DNA of 64,000 nucleotides from the NCBI RefSeq assembly GCF_058153355.1, contig NZ_CM177019.1, one strand, 5' to 3'. Shown here piece after piece: positions 3,149-58,074 of the stretch (position 1 is its first letter; every line of letters begins with the position of its first letter). The translations under genes and the position numbers were made by a program. Under the pieces are notes generated by a model. It ran no database searches. It was not told where the DNA came from and saw only the letters and a list, made by a program, of their open reading frames with translations.

Positions 3149-3248
3149 GCCTGATACACCTCGTTTATCAGGCCTACATAGTCTGTGCAATGTATTGAAT
3201 TTGCACGATTTTGTAGGCTGGATAAGGCGTTCACGCCGCATCCGGCAT
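3149..3248. repeat. pair of REP (repetitive extragenic palindromic) elements in the gcvP-ygfF intergenic region
   Basis: gcctgatacacctcgtttatcaggcctac (3149-3177) and gtaggctggataaggcgttcacgccgcatccggca (3214-3248) match the E. coli REP consensus as recalled. Confidence 0.7.
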
Positions 3249-6806: not shown

Positions 6807-8185
<1,379 letters not shown>

Positions 8186-52706: not shown

Positions 52707-52780
52707 GCGGGCGTAGTTCAATGGTAGAACGAGAGCTTCCCAAGCTCTATACGAGGGTTCGATTCCCTTCGTCCGCTCCA
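52707..52780 (+). tRNA. glyU: tRNA-Gly (anticodon CCC)
   Basis: 74-nt sequence gcgggcgtagttcaatggtagaacgagagcttcccaagctctatacgagggttcgattcccttcgtccgctcca with cloverleaf arms and encoded CCA; the island starts immediately 3' of it. Confidence 0.92.
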
Positions 52781-52944
52781 AACAAACATTTCTCAACGTC
52801 TACTAAAGTCCATCAAACCCACGAGTATCAAGCCTTCCAGCCATTTTCATAGTTTATTAACGTCTACTCACAACTACCAGAATCTACACACAGAAGTGTA
52901 TAGTAATGCGTATAGGACAAAATTTATTTTTTGGAGCTATACAC

Positions 52945-54309
52945 ATGCTGCTTTCAGACCTTGCCATCAGGCGCGCGAAGCCGAAAGAAAAGGCTTATAC
53001 ACTCAATGACGGTAACGGGCTTTCGTTGCTCATTGAGCCGAACGGTTCGAAAGGGTGGCGACTGCGCTACAGGTTTGCAGGAAAGCCCAAAATGTTGTCG
53101 TTGGGTGTGTACCCTGATGTGTCTCTGTCTGATGCCAGGGCGGCAAGGGATGAGGCTAAAAGGCTTCTTGCTGGTGGTATAAATCCAAGTGAGGCCAGAA
53201 AAGCCCAAAAGCGAGAACAGGCGAGCAAATTTGGCAATACTTTTGAGGGTATCGCTCGCGAATGGTACGAAAAGCGGATCGACAGGTGGTCATCGTCATA
53301 CGCCGAGGAAATGATCGAGACGTTTGAAAAAGACGTTTTTCCGTACATTGGCGGTAGGCCGATCGCAGAAATTAAGCCGATGGAATTGCTGGCGGTTCTT
53401 TCCCGTCTTAATGACCGTGGTGCGACTGAAAAATTGCGTAAGGTTCGCCAGCGATGTGGCGAGGTGTTCCGGTACGCAATCATCACCGGACGCGCCGAAT
53501 ATAATCCAGCCCCTGACCTGGTGAGCGCATTTGCTCCACATAAAAAAGAGCATTACGCCTGTTTGAAGGCCGATGAACTGCCGGAATTTTTCCGCGTTTT
53601 TAATACGTACACCGGAAGCCAGATCGTCAAACTGGCAATGCGGCTATTAATTCTGACAGGTGTCAGACCCGGGGAATTACGGCAGGCAGAATGGCGGGAG
53701 ATCGATTTTGATAATCGTTTGTGGGAAGTGCCTAAAGAACGAATGAAGATGCGCCGTCCGCATTGCGTGCCATTACCAGAACAGGCGATAAAAATACTGG
53801 AGCAGTTAAAAAACATGACAGGTCAGTATCAGTTTATTTTCCCCGGTCGTATTCACCACAGTAAACCAATGAGTGAAATGGCAATGAATGTGCTCATTCG
53901 TCGTATTGGCTACGCCGGGCGCGTTACTGGTCATGGATTCCGGCACACCATGAGCACCATTTTGCATGAGCAGGGCTATAACACCGCGTGGATAGAGACA
54001 CAGCTTGCGCACGCCGATAAAAACTCAATTCGTGGCACATACAACCATGCGCAATATCTGGATGGCAGACGCGAAATGCTCCAGTGGTATGCCGACTATA
54101 TGGATTCGCTCGAGCATGGCGGAAATGTGGTGCATGGTGAGTTCGGAAAATGCGGGGGACTGGTTGAGTATACAGTAGTAGACTTTGAGCGACTAAAAAC
54201 GGCTGTGTCTAGGGTCGCTCCTGAAAACCCGTACACCTCTGCGGGCTGGCACAGCCACTATGGTAGAGGGCGCGAGGTGACGCGTGATCGATATTGCCGA
54301 ATTACTTAA
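52945..54309 (+). CDS. int: tyrosine-type site-specific integrase, P4-like (tRNA-associated)
   Basis: ORF 52906..54309; start assigned to ATG 52945 with GGAG 8 nt upstream (MLLSDLAIRRAKPKEKAYTLNDGNGLSLLIEPNGSKGWRLRYRF...); C-terminal catalytic residues (HGFRHTMST, Y in GTYNHAQY). Confidence 0.9.
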   Translation: MLLSDLAIRRAKPKEKAYTLNDGNGLSLLIEPNGSKGWRLRYRFAGKPKMLSLGVYPDVSLSDARAARDEAKRLLAGGINPSEARKAQKREQASKFGNTFEGIAREWYEKRIDRWSSSYAEEMIETFEKDVFPYIGGRPIAEIKPMELLAVLSRLNDRGATEKLRKVRQRCGEVFRYAIITGRAEYNPAPDLVSAFAPHKKEHYACLKADELPEFFRVFNTYTGSQIVKLAMRLLILTGVRPGELRQAEWREIDFDNRLWEVPKERMKMRRPHCVPLPEQAIKILEQLKNMTGQYQFIFPGRIHHSKPMSEMAMNVLIRRIGYAGRVTGHGFRHTMSTILHEQGYNTAWIETQLAHADKNSIRGTYNHAQYLDGRREMLQWYADYMDSLEHGGNVVHGEFGKCGGLVEYTVVDFERLKTAVSRVAPENPYTSAGWHSHYGRGREVTRDRYCRIT

Positions 54310-55287: not shown

Positions 55288-55485
55288 ATGTCAAATACGC
55301 TTATTCGTTTAACGGAAGTTCAGCGTAGAACTGGATATAGCAAGGCATGGATTTATCGCCTTATGGGGCAAGGTAAATTTCCTGCATCAGTTAAAATTGG
55401 CTCGCGAGCTATTGCTTTCGTTGAGAGTGAAATTGACGAGTGGATTAATCAGCGTATTGCTGAATCACGCGGAACAGCTACCTGA
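55288..55485 (+). CDS. alpA: AlpA-family phage/island transcriptional regulator (excisionase-like HTH)
   Basis: 65-aa ORF MSNTLIRLTEVQRRTGYSKAWIYRLMGQGKFPASVKIGSRAIAFVESEIDEWI..., strong SD gaggtaaa. Confidence 0.85.
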   Translation: MSNTLIRLTEVQRRTGYSKAWIYRLMGQGKFPASVKIGSRAIAFVESEIDEWINQRIAESRGTAT

Positions 55486-55563: not shown

Positions 55564-56364
55564 ATGAAATTTCCAAAAACGCCCATACAGGGGCAGGGCT
55601 TCGTTCGGCTTGAAAACCAGAATCTGCAAAATTTTGGCAAAATTATCCCGGTTATTTCCGGCGTTATTGGCGGGCGTGAAACCAATATTGTTAGCGCCAG
55701 AGCGTTGCATAAGGCGCTCGGGGTAGGCCGTGATTTCACAACCTGGATTAAAGTACGCATTGATGAGTACGGATTTAAAAAGGGCGTGGATTTTGAATTC
55801 GTAGAAAATTTGACCTCCCCCAATCCGGTGAGCGCAAAATCTCGCCAACGTATAGAGCACGACTACCTGAGCACTATCAACATGGCGAAAGAACTGGCGA
55901 TGGTCGAACGCACCGAACAGGGCCGCGCCGTTCGTCAGTATTTCATCAAATGCGAGGAGGAGCTACACAAGGTAGCGCCTGTGCGTTCCGCAGCGTTACG
56001 CCGGGAACTGAAAGCCCGTATCACTGTTGCCAGCTACTTTAAGCCAATGTGCGCCGCGCTGGAGGCGTACCGGGCAGAACTGGGTAAAAACACTCTACAG
56101 CACCACTACACCACGGAAGCTAATATGCTGGCGCGTATCGTGCTGGGTGGCATGACTGCAAAACAGTGGGCACTGGCGAACGGCATCACAAGCGAACCAC
56201 GCGACCACATGAGCACGTTGCAGCTTGAGCACCTTTCTTACCTTGAGCAGAGCAATATCACGCTGATTGAGTTAGGCCAGGACTACCACCAGCGGAAAGC
56301 TGAATTAATTCGTCTTTCGCAGCGCTGGTTAGCCCGTCGCATGGAGGAAAACAACCATGTGTAA
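55564..56364 (+). CDS. phage antirepressor-like protein (AntA/KilAC-type domains)
   Basis: 266-aa ORF with SD aggag; N-terminal region resembles AntA/Bro-type antirepressor domain; assignment by recall, moderate confidence. Confidence 0.6.
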   Translation: MKFPKTPIQGQGFVRLENQNLQNFGKIIPVISGVIGGRETNIVSARALHKALGVGRDFTTWIKVRIDEYGFKKGVDFEFVENLTSPNPVSAKSRQRIEHDYLSTINMAKELAMVERTEQGRAVRQYFIKCEEELHKVAPVRSAALRRELKARITVASYFKPMCAALEAYRAELGKNTLQHHYTTEANMLARIVLGGMTAKQWALANGITSEPRDHMSTLQLEHLSYLEQSNITLIELGQDYHQRKAELIRLSQRWLARRMEENNHV

Positions 56365-57018
56365 CGCTCTGACCGTTACAAAAAGAGAAAGCGCCCCGTT
56401 GCCGGAGCGCCTTTGTGAACGAATAGCCTACTGCGCCATATTGCTTACTGTCTACGAGGCAGATTATAGCGTTGTGGTCGCACAGAGTGAAGGCACTGAT
56501 CACCGTTACTACAGCACGCCAGAAATGCAGAATATTTTGCTGCAAAATGCCGCTGGCCACGCTGTCCGGAAAGCAAAAAATTTTGCTGGTGGCGCGACTG
56601 ATACGATTTTTTCTGGTCGCCAGGTGCTGATCAATCTGATGTCTGATTTCGTTCTGGATAAAACAAAGGCGACCGCAGAGGGCCACCAGTGGGAAAGCTA
56701 CACACTTGAACACATCGCCAACAATGCCAGATTTGCGGCTGGTGGGCAATGTGATCAGTGTGTTGGCTTGCTGGTGGGCTGTTCGTCTGGTTCAGTCCGT
56801 TGCCATGCATGGAGTGAACGCATTTTCCAGGAATACTCTTTGAGGTACTTCTCAAGAGCAAACGCACACGGGGCGAATCTCTCCGGTTCATGTTCGTTTA
56901 CCGCATTTTTGCGTTGTTTTTTCCTGGATGAGGATAATTTCTTTAATGATTTGTCAGTCATCGTATATACCTGTAACCCTGTGCGCCACAGTTCACTGCA
57001 CCACGGCGCTGATGGTGA

Positions 57019-57198
57019 TTACTCTGATTCTTTGGCCTTGCGGCGCTGGCGGCGTTTGATCTCACCTTCAAGTGCCGAAACGATAAATTGTCCAGTGCTT
57101 TCGCCTTCTTCCTTTAAACTTTCTACAGCGTCAGCTATTGCATGGGGTACTCGTGCCTCAAGTTTTTTTGATTTTCCATTAACTGCTTTCGTTGCCAT
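57019..57198 (-). CDS. ribbon-helix-helix (CopG/Arc-like) DNA-binding protein
   Basis: 59 aa MATKAVNGKSKKLEARVPHAIADAVESLKEEGESTGQFIVSALEGEIKRRQRRKAKESE; beta-strand then two helices typical of RHH; SD aaggga upstream; divergent from the promoter at 57260-57288. Confidence 0.6.
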   Translation of the reverse strand: MATKAVNGKSKKLEARVPHAIADAVESLKEEGESTGQFIVSALEGEIKRRQRRKAKESE

Positions 57199-57219
57199 AT
57201 CTGATTCCCTTGTTATTAG

Positions 57220-57299
57220 GTGGCTGACAGTATACACACAAGAAAATGGAAAAACACTATTGACGTGGCTGACACCTGTTACTAGTATAGTGGCTGACA
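57220..57299 (+). promoter_or_regulatory. near-consensus sigma70 promoter (TTGACG-17 bp-TAGTAT) overlapped by three direct repeats GTGGCTGACA
   Basis: -35 ttgacg 57260-57265, -10 tagtat 57283-57288; direct repeats at 57220-57229, 57265-57274 and 57290-57299. Confidence 0.6.
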
Positions 57300-57562
57300 C
57301 CTTTATTAAGGTAATCGATGAAAAGACAAAGCCCGCAGGCGCTACCAACACCAACGGGCTTCTAACCACCAACGATAGAAAGCGTATCGAGGTAGCTATG
57401 TTAAATCATACCACACACCCGCAAGGGCGGGACTCGCACAACCTGAATAAAGCGGGGGTAAAAAACCAGTTGATCGCCACTGCCAGCCAGGGCTATGATT
57501 TATCTGCACCAGCAAAATCTGGTGCCCGGATTGGCGTCCTGAAAATTCTGAAGGCGACATAT

Positions 57563-57584
57563 GACGCGCCGAGCGTCTTTTTTT
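57563..57584 (+). terminator. intrinsic terminator-like hairpin plus T-run inside the leader downstream of the promoter
   Basis: gacgcgccgagcgtc (5-bp stem) followed by ttttttt. Confidence 0.45.
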
Positions 57585-57787
57585 ATGTCGTAGGTCTGAC
57601 TCACCCATTTTTTGGGCGTTGGTGTATAATCCAGCGCCTTTGTCAATCAATGGTGGCTCAGGCGGGGGCTTCTTCGGAAGCGCCGGTATCCTTCAGAGCC
57701 GGTTACGCCAACCCTGTCTGGGCTACCACCAGCGAAATTGGCGTTTCCGGTGGTAGCGTAACCTGCTATCTGAAGGAGGCTGCCGAC

Positions 57788-57976
57788 ATGGCTACTACCC
57801 CTACCCTTGTACATTCTCAAACCGTCTTTCTCTGGCGCTTTATCGCCCTGAGCACAGCACAACCGCGCGTGATTCACATCGTGGCCACCAGCGAACAGGA
57901 AGCCCGCCAGCAATCTCCGGCTGGCTGCGTGATGGTATTCGCCGCCCGTATTCGTCAGGAGGTGGGCCATGATTAA
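57788..57976 (+). CDS. small hypothetical protein (62 aa) of the island early operon
   Basis: ATG 57788 preceded by SD gaaggagg; stop overlaps the next start (atgattaa). Confidence 0.55.
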   Translation: MATTPTLVHSQTVFLWRFIALSTAQPRVIHIVATSEQEARQQSPAGCVMVFAARIRQEVGHD

Positions 57977-58074
57977 TCTGTCACTTACCGACCTTAACCG
58001 TAAGCGTCTTATCAGGACCGTCTGGCAAATTCCCGATGCTTTGGACAAAGTATCCACCACTAAATTAATAGTGG

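Follow-up and report, generated by a model that had tools for sequence, protein, structure and literature searches.

Positions 57303-57787 of the 64,000-nt stretch of DNA analyzed here (the window; contig NZ_CM177019.1 of assembly GCF_058153355.1) raise a simple question: is the DNA between a promoter and the first well-supported gene behind it empty spacer, or is it a control element? An earlier note, made from the sequence alone, had described a leader of ~480 nt and suggested a regulatory RNA or attenuator of the P4 immunity type. In a P4-type switch, the following gene is governed by two RNAs, one short and terminated, the other small and antisense. We found Rfam isrK and C4 matches above their gathering scores in the stretch, and both models also match P4, which speaks for regulatory RNA rather than spacer. 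The region is a real but ordinary member of the known P4-type RNA switch, and what was presumed to be a leader is very probably the part of a P4-like satellite island that provides RNA-based immunity (early control). The P4-type proposal is borne out by 68% nucleotide identity with P4 across the whole module, by structures that covary and by antisense loops that track their targets. The idea of a single untranslated leader did not survive, because the stretch has its own promoter inside (57470-57499) and lies in a conserved eta/kil-like frame.

The island is integrated beside a tRNA-Gly(CCC) gene (52707-52780). A tyrosine integrase ORF (52906-54309) next to this tRNA gene and an AlpA regulator (55288-55485; Pfam PF05930) are traits of P4-like satellites and of Gram-negative PICIs, and the int-alpA RNA of Rfam also has a match in the window. 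Downstream of the control region are DUF4222 and a D5_N ORF, the latter cut to 346 aa by an IS110-family element. An IS66-family insertion (58001-60468, plus strand; recognized by Pfam IS66 domains, with break points taken from comparison with the relative L001) interrupts the icd-coupled gene and parts the control region from the replication genes. With these two insertions downstream, the island is defective, and since they break it, the module may no longer control anything in cis. The window closes, at 64000, before the end of the island, and the ORFs scanned from 52.7 kb onward include no epsilon, sid, delta or psu gene.

Two structured RNAs and their target sites

The features of the control region lie on the plus strand unless stated otherwise, and they were compared across about 40-50 distinct relatives (42 for C4, 50 for IsrK and its promoter). 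The internal promoter is a sigma-70-type site found by consensus scan, TTGATC-18-TATGAT (57470-57499), with a predicted start at ~57506. Its -10 element retains A-11 and T-7 in 50/50 distinct relatives and T-12 in 46/50, and a T of the -35 element is kept in 49/50, with varying flanking bases. Situated immediately before IsrK, it is the putative counterpart of P4 PLE and of the Gifsy-1 isrK promoter, and the IsrK-like RNA is predicted to be its primary transcript. Because of this promoter, most of the stretch is not leader of the promoter at 57260.

The IsrK/seqA-like RNA (57506-57583) matches Rfam RF01394 with 68.8 bits against a gathering score of 50 (E = 1e-12). It comprises hairpin 1 (57506-57525), a hairpin 2 with the a1 sequence AUUGGCGU (57530-57537) in its loop, and the b1 sequence UUCUGAAGG (57546-57554). 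The terminator scan placed an intrinsic terminator, GACGC-GCCGA-GCGTC (57563-57577) followed by seven T (57578-57584), where the earlier note had seen a terminator-like hairpin and T-run; the scan taken alone is not above chance. In an alignment of 50 sequences, 92.9% of the cells of the IsrK structure are paired and 8 pairs have changes on both sides, with one C-U mismatch in hairpin 2 of the window. The c4-a1b1 model (Rfam RF03163) remains below its gathering score, with 32 vs 46.7 bits over bases already under the isrK model, and P4 itself stays just under the same threshold at 44.1 bits.

The second RNA is a C4 or CI-like antisense RNA (57646-57733) that matches Rfam RF01695 over its full length (model positions 1-87; 79.9 bits against a gathering score of 45, E = 5e-14). 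It comprises a closing stem (57651-57667 with 57712-57728), hairpin 1 (57668-57681), hairpin 2 (57682-57703) carrying b' = UCCUUCAGA (57689-57697) in its loop, and a single-stranded a' = ACGCCAA (57705-57711). The segment folds with z = -4.8. Across 42 distinct sequences and 27 pairs, 100% of 1134 cells are paired and 13 pairs show compensatory changes, a level of pairing equaled in 0/500 shuffles; when the 3' partner was slid by one to three columns as a control, 33-50% of cells were paired. The structure and covariation check across relatives that had been proposed thus came out positive for both RNAs.

Downstream of C4 we read a target region in the sequence (57737-57779), the counterpart of P4 seqC and of a2/b2 in P1. 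It consists of a2 = AUUGGCGU (57737-57744) and b2 = UCUGAAGGA (57769-57777), the latter overlapping the icd Shine-Dalgarno sequence AGGAGG (57774-57779). The antisense segment a' is complementary to 57531-57537 in a1 and to 57738-57744 in a2, and b' is complementary to both b1 and b2; in the 64 kb, a1 and a2 are the only two places with ATTGGCGT. Among 31 distinct b' loops, the longest Watson-Crick match averages 7.3 nt to their own b1 and 8.3 nt to their own b2, as compared with 4.8 and 4.6 nt for the b1 and b2 of other loci. In all 31 distinct modules b2 lies over a Shine-Dalgarno sequence ~10 nt before the ATG, and this distance is fixed.

An overlapping open frame and rival readings of the conservation

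The same DNA is also open for translation. An eta-like ORF of 192 codons (57398-57976, from translation; Pfam PF10554, Phage_ASH) begins behind a Shine-Dalgarno GAGG (57389-57392) and ahead of the internal promoter; without leaving its frame it covers IsrK, the spacer, C4 and a2/b2 and ends with icd. Its ATG at 57398-57400 overturns the claim that the leader holds only one ATG with a start context. The ORF matches Phage_ASH with E = 5e-36 to 4e-35 and PHROG 29966 over its full length (E = 4e-55), and its identity to the eta frame of P4 is 39% over 171 aa. No stop interrupts this frame in 59/69 modules, and the open stretch ahead of C4 has a median length of 373 nt, vs 69 and 68 nt for the two alternative frames; all indels seen in relatives (3, 42 and 48 nt) preserve the frame. 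Within it, an Icd/Kil-like gene of 62 aa (57788-57976) matches NCBIfam NF033153 with E = 2e-18 to 3e-18, a family that also matches the Kil part of the old P4 'cI' ORF. At ATGATTAA (57969-57976) the stop codon of icd and the ATG of the gene behind it overlap, and this points to translational coupling. For the minus-strand ORFs 57396-57650 and 57647-58060 no Pfam family was found.

These coding signals allow a different reading, in which the conserved entity is an 'Ash family' or 'transcriptional repressor' protein and the RNA-model matches are side effects of conserved coding. The Phage_ASH match (E = 4e-35), the full-length PHROG match, the open frame and the in-frame indels would all fit a protein, as would existing labels: RefSeq names an 'ash family protein' here (355 aa in one case), and other PHROGs are labeled transcriptional repressor. 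We nevertheless regard this reading as highly improbable. All C4 pairs survive by compensatory double changes that alter the encoded amino acids, and the b' loop co-varies with both of its targets. Conservation of the Ash frame at the protein level was not found, as amino-acid identity in this frame (0.48) does not exceed that in the alternative ones (0.47 and 0.48), and the variability shows only a weak codon periodicity. The 'repressor' label has probably been passed down from the old P4 'cI protein' annotation, and the P4 immunity factor is an RNA (PMC4825925, PMC10111431, PMC3632133). The eta-like frame is real, and selection appears to be for openness rather than for an amino-acid sequence. 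That the stretch is instead an ordinary long 5' UTR, with a terminator-like hairpin by chance and no regulatory role, has next to no probability: the terminator scan by itself is no better than chance (3 sites vs 1.2 +/- 1.4 in shuffles), but the Rfam E-values of 1e-12 to 1e-14, the covariation in C4 and IsrK, the homology with P4 and the presence of the cassette in ~950 E. coli genomes already refute it. The entire 506-nt stretch folds with z = -5.5. Finally, the hexamer TATAAT noted at 57625-57630 is present as described, and it could be a second promoter for C4 alone, which would make C4 independent of terminator read-through. It is a perfect -10 hexamer located 20 nt before the C4 match, and 6/17 distinct long-spacer relatives contain it. 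It lacks an acceptable -35 or extended -10 element, however, and the promoter scan made no call; it is missing in 11/17 relatives of the same class, and the entire insert is missing in the short-spacer class. The hexamer is in fact part of the loop UGUAUAAU of a spacer hairpin, GGGCGUUGG / CCAGCGCCU (57614-57639; -15.8 kcal/mol, z = -4.4), which belongs to a 42-nt in-frame insert of one, long-spacer, class of relatives. A hairpin is found at this site in 17/17 distinct long-spacer variants, built from different sequences, and it is the hairpin that is conserved. We thus rejected the hexamer as a promoter; such a role is unlikely, and TATAAT is probably not a promoter.

Control DNA upstream of the module

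A promoter before the leader had been postulated, and a consensus scan indeed locates a promoter-like site, TTGACG-17-TAGTAT, at 57260-57288 (9/12 matches). It is overlapped by operator-like direct repeats, GTGGCTGACA, which we read at three positions (57220-57229, 57265-57274 and 57290-57299; no strand assigned). A divergent gene of 59 aa on the minus strand (57019-57198) belongs to the YlcI/YnfO family (NCBIfam NF041551, E = 8e-18; PHROG 949), and relatives carry the YlcI/YnfO annotation as well. In the relative L002 the same three repeat positions read GTGGGGGACA and GTGGGCCACA, and its YlcI is only 65% identical. The operator-like repeats thus vary in step with the protein, which makes the YlcI/YnfO-family protein a candidate repressor of the upstream promoter; the promoter-like site is probably regulated and the counterpart of P4 PLL in role.

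The transcribed DNA behind this site would contain a 5' leader hairpin (57329-57373; arms 57329-57335 and 57355-57361; fold z = -2.8), in which the stem is followed by an invariant tail, CUAACCACCAAC (57362-57373). The sequence GGGCNTCTAACCANCAAC is found in at least 120 IMG/VR loci, in 58 distinct versions. Pairing holds in 85% of the hairpin's cells (73% in shuffles), both sides have changed in 26 cells, and no Rfam family matches. A mini-ORF overlaps it (57318-57365): the short reading frame reported previously exists, with 15 codons and a stop, and its ATG lies at 57318-57320, one base off the position given before (57317). As a leader peptide we rejected it, since the frame is not conserved; L002 has another ATG and frame, and most other relatives have none. 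The GC-rich hairpin CCCGC-AAGG-GCGGG (57418-57431) likewise is present, but its fold (z = -1.06) is at chance level, and its bases encode part of the conserved N-terminus of the eta-like frame (HPQGRDS). A role as an element of its own is consequently not supported; the variation seen in relatives at this site is compatible with either an RNA hairpin or coding.

The frame that contains eta and icd extends further. Translation gives a 539-codon stop-free frame (56357-57976, plus strand) that overlaps the stop of an AntA-domain gene, is antisense to a 68-aa gene and to ylcI, and crosses the promoter region; equivalents have 483 codons in L002 and 437 in L059. Openness over ylcI and the 68-aa gene was rejected as a sign of selection, as synonymous resampling leaves the frame stop-free (P 0.26-0.90). 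The intergenic part (P about 0.03) carries weight, as does the test across clusters. We tentatively consider, as a possibility that is more doubtful than probable, that the icd/eta frame is deliberately kept stop-free far beyond the RNA module, so that ribosomes from the upstream alpA-antA operon could translate through the cassette without a break and thereby override it. This frame also runs through divergent promoter/operator DNA and through the leader hairpin. In the sequences compared, the IsrK-C4 cassette is apparently a 375-nt in-frame addition to a common short form of the gene. We dismissed the idea that short relatives (L001 type) are deletion derivatives: the short form is the common one, in ~80/91 contexts.

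A control model and its known relatives

With high confidence, the stretch matches the P4 PLE-seqA-cI-seqC-kil region, itself nested in eta, part for part. In P4 the isrK and C4 models match at 8692-8615 and 8507-8420, with the same order of parts as in the window. In both systems the internal promoter directly precedes seqA/IsrK and the downstream target lies on the kil/icd Shine-Dalgarno sequence; P4 Kil and the window Icd fall into one NCBIfam family. The recognition sequences differ: the a sites are UUGGCGU/ACGCCAA here vs GUGAGAA/UUCUCAC in P4, and the b sites CUGAAGGA/UCCUUCAG vs CACAGGA/UCCUGUG. The window is therefore expected to be heteroimmune to P4. The same a/b specificity is found at ~97.6% identity in many E. 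coli genomes, ETEC H10407 among them. The spacer measures 62 nt with one hairpin in the window and 107 nt in P4, and the DNA ahead of eta carries a co-directional alpA-type gene (orf88) in P4 but the divergent ylcI, the operator-like repeats and the conserved leader hairpin in the window. In publications on P4, the names seqA and CI stand for IsrK and C4 (PMC3632133). In P4, termination is suppressed when ribosomes translate eta on transcripts from the upstream promoter, and downstream there is a Rho-dependent terminator (PMC10111431).

Our model takes RNA processing, repression, the involvement of Rho and bypass from P4, P1 and Gifsy-1; start sites, the terminator 3' end, processing and repression at this locus are predictions. 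Transcription from the internal promoter would be constitutive and start at ~57506. The intrinsic terminator (57563-57584) would end most transcripts, yielding an IsrK/seqA-like RNA of ~78 nt that bears a1 and b1. As an isrK family member it would be expected to bind Hfq, with a long isoform arising by partial read-through. Read-through transcripts would contain the C4/CI-like RNA, which has a tRNA-like stem with CCACCA visible at its 3' side, as in RNase P substrates; it is presumably excised, by RNase P as predicted from its relatives, as a stable trans-acting repressor of ~80 nt. Its exposed a' and b' segments may then bind their partners a2 and b2 at the icd/kil Shine-Dalgarno sequence (gene start at 57788). 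Icd and the coupled downstream replication operon would not be translated, and Rho would be expected to terminate the untranslated RNA. Control at the icd start would go beyond an intrinsic terminator and consist in occlusion of the ribosome-binding site, which is also the mode of P1 c4 and P4 kil. The a1/b1 copy, be it part of the leader or of free IsrK RNA, could bind the same C4 loops and either aid termination (P4 model) or titrate the antisense RNA and turn translation on (Gifsy-1 model). Transcripts from the repressor-controlled promoter at 57260-57288, or from further upstream, would include the start codon at 57398, and ribosomes on the eta-like frame passing through the module should block RNA folds, pairing and termination, amounting to a bypass of immunity.

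The C4 family of Rfam is named after c4 of P1/P7, whose immI region (c4, a1/b1, a2/b2, icd, ant) encodes the same RNA family as the window C4. Citron and Schuster reportedly found for P1/P7 that two target pairs flank c4, that b2 covers the icd ribosome-binding site and that icd is translationally coupled to the next gene. P1 controls the antirepressor of a separate protein repressor, C1, whereas the window module, like that of P4, would control satellite replication genes. N15 (CA RNA, icd, antA-C) matches the C4 part of the cassette; it is a linear-plasmid prophage, not a satellite, in which, as Ravin et al. are said to have described in 1999, a processed small RNA controls the icd-ant operon. 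In P1/P7, loop sequences set immunity specificity (PMC12197685).

Gifsy-1 offers a rival model. Its isrK-orf45-anrP region resembles the window in having an isrK family member, a terminated short RNA next to a read-through mRNA, a downstream C4-like RNA, an overlapping ORF and translational coupling to the next gene. In Gifsy-1, IsrK and STnc1160 are homologs of seqA and CI, respectively, and the ORF that overlaps STnc1160 is translated (PMC4825925). Its orf45, over the C4 region, ends at the antirepressor gene, and the short RNA is a demonstrated activator; P4 and Gifsy-1 give opposite signs to the short RNA. If the window behaved likewise, pairing in cis between IsrK and C4 would lock the read-through mRNA, and free IsrK acting in trans would open the fold and turn on icd and the genes downstream. 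The parts are homologous, and the published mechanism is supported by compensatory mutations (PMC4825925). Furthermore, the full-length RNA does not reach its minimum energy with the isolated C4 shape; in its fold IsrK pairs with the C4 region instead, and a conserved AUG (57651-57653) in the open frame at the C4 5' end recalls the first AUG of orf45. This AUG has no Shine-Dalgarno sequence, however, and the window frame, unlike that of Gifsy-1, continues into a separate icd with its own Shine-Dalgarno sequence and ATG, where b2 is placed directly on the former, as in P1/P4. Gifsy-1-like control is thus a real but less favored possibility. It is also not exclusive with the repressor model, as the same pairings would account for C4 repression and for its relief by IsrK.

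Recognizing the P4-type switch gives a concrete function to a stretch publicly annotated as protein only ('ash family protein', 'Icd-like', 'transcriptional repressor'), and such labels show here where annotation misses RNA genes. The analysis also supplies the a and b recognition sequences, the expected determinants of the island's immunity specificity. The in-frame cassette polymorphism, the leader hairpin outside known Rfam families and the frame that is open across a divergent promoter all bear on how satellites bypass their own RNA immunity. If the reading of the 539-codon frame is true, the principle of P4 eta would extend to a frame crossing a divergent control region, openness and not the encoded protein would be what is selected, and IsrK-C4 would be an in-frame module of 375 nt that one and the same icd gene may contain or lack.

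An IsrK-C4 RNA module upstream of icd

The stretch preceding icd (57303-57787) contains two Rfam matches, isrK at 57506-57583 (68.8 bits; gathering score 50) and C4 antisense RNA at 57646-57733 (79.9 bits; gathering score 45); over the first half of IsrK, the related Rfam model c4-a1b1 stays below its threshold. We assigned the pairing sites by comparing the window with the consensus of the C4 family. Segment b' (UCCUUCAGA, 57689-57697), in the loop of C4 hairpin 2, is complementary to b1 in IsrK (UUCUGAAGG, 57546-57554) and to b2 (UCUGAAGGA, 57769-57777), the latter overlapping the Shine-Dalgarno sequence (AGGAGG) of the ORF at 57788. The single-stranded a' segment (ACGCCAA, 57705-57711) is complementary to AUUGGCGU, found only twice in the 64-kb window: as a1 (57530-57537), located in the loop of the second IsrK hairpin, and as a2 just 3' of C4 (57737-57744). 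The ORF itself, icd (57788-57976), encodes an Icd-like cell-division inhibitor as judged by its match to NCBIfam NF033153, and its stop codon overlaps the start codon (ATG) of the following gene.

We compared this module with its relatives by searching IMG/VR with a C4-core pattern, which returned 120 loci, 69 of them with distinct complete modules. The pattern fixed helix 3 and part of a' in all fetched loci, and these columns are therefore uninformative. In 42 distinct C4 sequences, standard pairs occupy all pair cells (1134/1134, 100%), and 13 pairs have changed on both sides; none of 500 shuffles paired as well, and slid controls reached 33-50%. For IsrK (50 sequences), 92.9% of cells are paired and 8 pairs show compensatory changes. 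When 31 different b' loops were matched to their own sites, the mean match was 7.3 nt for b1 and 8.3 nt for b2, compared with 4.8 and 4.6 nt, respectively, for non-cognate combinations, and b2 lies on the Shine-Dalgarno sequence in every module compared.

In phage P4, the same models match 8692-8615 (isrK, corresponding to seqA) and 8507-8420 (C4, corresponding to CI RNA). The two modules share 68% nucleotide identity and the same layout but differ in their a and b sequences. IsrK has been equated with seqA, and the stable RNA downstream of it with CI (PMC4825925; PMC3632133). The Rfam matches, the P4 homology and the covariation together bear out in substance the P4-type RNA immunity proposed in the earlier note. 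In Stx1/Stx2 phage records, the match is confined to the IsrK part of the module (bases 11-113 of query 57480-57800) and includes no C4 part. Elsewhere in the window, Rfam matches naRNA4 (REP-derived, both strands) and ES036, at 8030-8107 and 3170-3212.

Terminator and promoters of the module

The terminator-like hairpin and T-run noted earlier are present, with GACGC/GCGTC at 57563-57577 followed by seven T. A terminator scan is weak by itself (3 sites versus 1.2 +/- 1.4 in shuffles). The IsrK match ends at this hairpin, and a terminator present by chance is a reading we disfavour. The small hairpin CCCGC-AAGG-GCGGG was likewise found (57418-57431), and is weak when taken singly (folding z = -1.06). 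Over its full 506 nt, the stretch is far from random in its folding (z = -5.5).

A consensus scan located an upstream promoter-like site, TTGACG-17-TAGTAT (57260-57288), and an internal one at 57470-57499. Because of the second site, the stretch is not one leader of about 480 nt, as had been assumed. In the -10 hexamer of the internal site, A-11 and T-7 are kept in 50 of 50 relatives and T-12 in 46 of 50; the T of the -35 element is retained in 49 of 50. The spacing of both elements to the first IsrK base is fixed while their flanks vary freely, and 57470-57499 is therefore the predicted promoter of the IsrK-C4 module. The TATAAT hexamer at 57625-57630 exists, and could be read as an independent promoter. 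However, it is contained in a 42-nt insert common to one class of relatives, which forms a hairpin from differing sequences in 17 of 17 distinct versions and carries TATAAT in its loop in 6 of these, disfavouring such a reading.

The upstream promoter is flanked by three GTGGCTGACA repeats (57220-57299). In the related locus L002, GTGGGCCACA / GTGGGGGACA take their place, alongside a YlcI variant of 65% identity. This joint replacement suggests that the repeats and YlcI could form an operator-repressor pair.

Reading frames through and upstream of the RNA genes

The earlier note had placed the only ATG with a possible start context in a mini-ORF. This ORF is present (15 codons plus stop), its start lying at 57318, one base from the coordinate reported; its ATG is not the only candidate, however, as the ATG at 57398, preceded by GAGG, opens 192 codons. 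The resulting ORF (57398-57976) matches Pfam Phage_ASH (E = 5e-36) and, over its full length, PHROG 29966, and is 39% identical to the P4 eta frame over 171 residues. The old P4 'cI protein' ORF, which spans both P4 RNAs, also matches Phage_ASH, and the Icd-like model matches its C-terminal portion; from these profile matches we judge Kil of P4 and Icd of the window to be homologs. P4 Kil is a truncated Eta, and full-length Eta is translated only from an upstream promoter, its translation preventing termination (PMC10111431).

The Phage_ASH frame is stop-free from the IsrK 5' end to the icd ATG in 59 of 69 modules, with 1-7 stops in the other two frames over the same span. Upstream of C4, its median open stretch is 373 nt versus 69 and 68 nt in the others, and the a1-to-C4 length classes (124, 127, 130, 169 and 175 nt) differ from one another only by multiples of 3. 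Yet its amino-acid identity is not above that of the other two frames, and codon-position variability is only weakly periodic. The frame is conserved as open without amino-acid conservation, and the stretch is thus a translated frame and a set of RNA genes at once; RNA constraints dominate its sequence; for the frame, the main constraint seems to be that it contains no stop. Translation of an ORF across the C4 region has been shown (PMC4825925). We disfavour a protein-only reading of the stretch. Public labels for the cassette are protein-only ('ash family protein', 'Icd-like', 'transcriptional repressor'; related records L002, L003 and L242; PHROGs 6928, 6196 and 1743), and none of the public records inspected has an ncRNA feature on it.

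A further hairpin (57329-57361), followed by invariant CUAACCACCAAC (57362-57373), lies about 35 nt past the predicted upstream-promoter start and 42 nt before ATG 57398. Both elements recur in at least 120 IMG/VR loci (58 distinct versions) with moderate covariation (85% of cells paired versus 73% in shuffles), and no Rfam family matched 57329-57373. In about 80 of 91 contexts, the counterpart of ATG 57398 directly starts an Icd-like protein of 67 aa. The window and a few relatives carry a 375-nt IsrK-C4 cassette (57454-57828; compared with related locus L001, 3399-3602) in frame between N-terminal M(L/R)NHTTHPQGRDSHNLNK, whose coding part includes the CCCGC hairpin, and the Icd core. Locus L059 (955-2268) has an open frame of 437 codons in which a short-form icd remnant stands in tandem with a complete IsrK-C4-icd cassette.

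The eta/icd frame is open for 539 codons (56357-57976), overlapping the stop of the AntA-domain gene and running antisense through a 68-aa gene, ylcI (57019-57198, minus strand) and the divergent promoter region. It stays open for 483 codons in L002 (2487-3938), whose parts have diverged, and for the 437 codons of L059, whose parts are nearly unrelated; RefSeq also has 'Icd-like' proteins of 218-236 aa in which the upstream gene and Icd are joined through different intervening sequences. Openness over the antisense genes is unsurprising (stop-free probability 0.26-0.90 given the proteins). In 6-7 of 10 unrelated clusters of sequences, however, no stop occurs over the 150 nt of promoter/operator DNA, where the chance is 0.03-0.10 each. 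This is surprising and suggests selection for uninterrupted translation from upstream and would extend the P4 eta logic.

Island context and proposed mechanism

The island adjoins tRNA-Gly(CCC) and carries an integrase, int-alpA RNA, AlpA and an AntA-domain gene. The int-alpA RNA (RF02996, 45.5 bits; 54202-54269) lies inside the integrase ORF (467 codons, 52906-54309), at its 3' end. An IS66-family element (TnpA, TnpB, TnpC; about 58001-60468) has inserted about 25 nt past the icd stop, with a target duplication of about 8-9 bp, and interrupts the gene coupled to icd; an IS110-family transposase gene (62248-63423) cuts the D5_N primase/helicase ORF (61149-63423 region) to 346 aa. Because of these insertions, the island is predicted to be defective, including for replication. 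From 57514 onward, many complete E. coli genomes share the cassette at about 97.6% identity, and in every case its annotation is protein-only; no complete E. coli genome matches the whole of 57000-58030 at high identity.

The mechanism we propose builds on the part identities and boundaries, covariation, loop-target matching, conserved promoter and frame, and P4 homology obtained here; its termination, processing, repression, Rho and override steps we infer from P4, P1 and Gifsy-1. In P4, the transcript is terminated via CI and seqA and processed to CI RNA (PMC10111431). Most transcripts from 57506 would likewise end at 57584, and read-through RNA would be processed to a stable C4-like RNA. 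This RNA would occlude the ribosome-binding site of icd and so, aided by Rho, shut off the coupled operon, with the a1/b1 copy either assisting termination or titrating C4. The short RNA may instead have an activating role of the Gifsy-1 type. In the proposed C4-mediated immunity, ribosomes translating the long frame on transcripts from upstream promoters would override the system. As a regulatory module, the stretch is real, well conserved and of a known kind; it goes beyond what has been described only in its polymorphic in-frame cassette, its leader hairpin and its long open frame.
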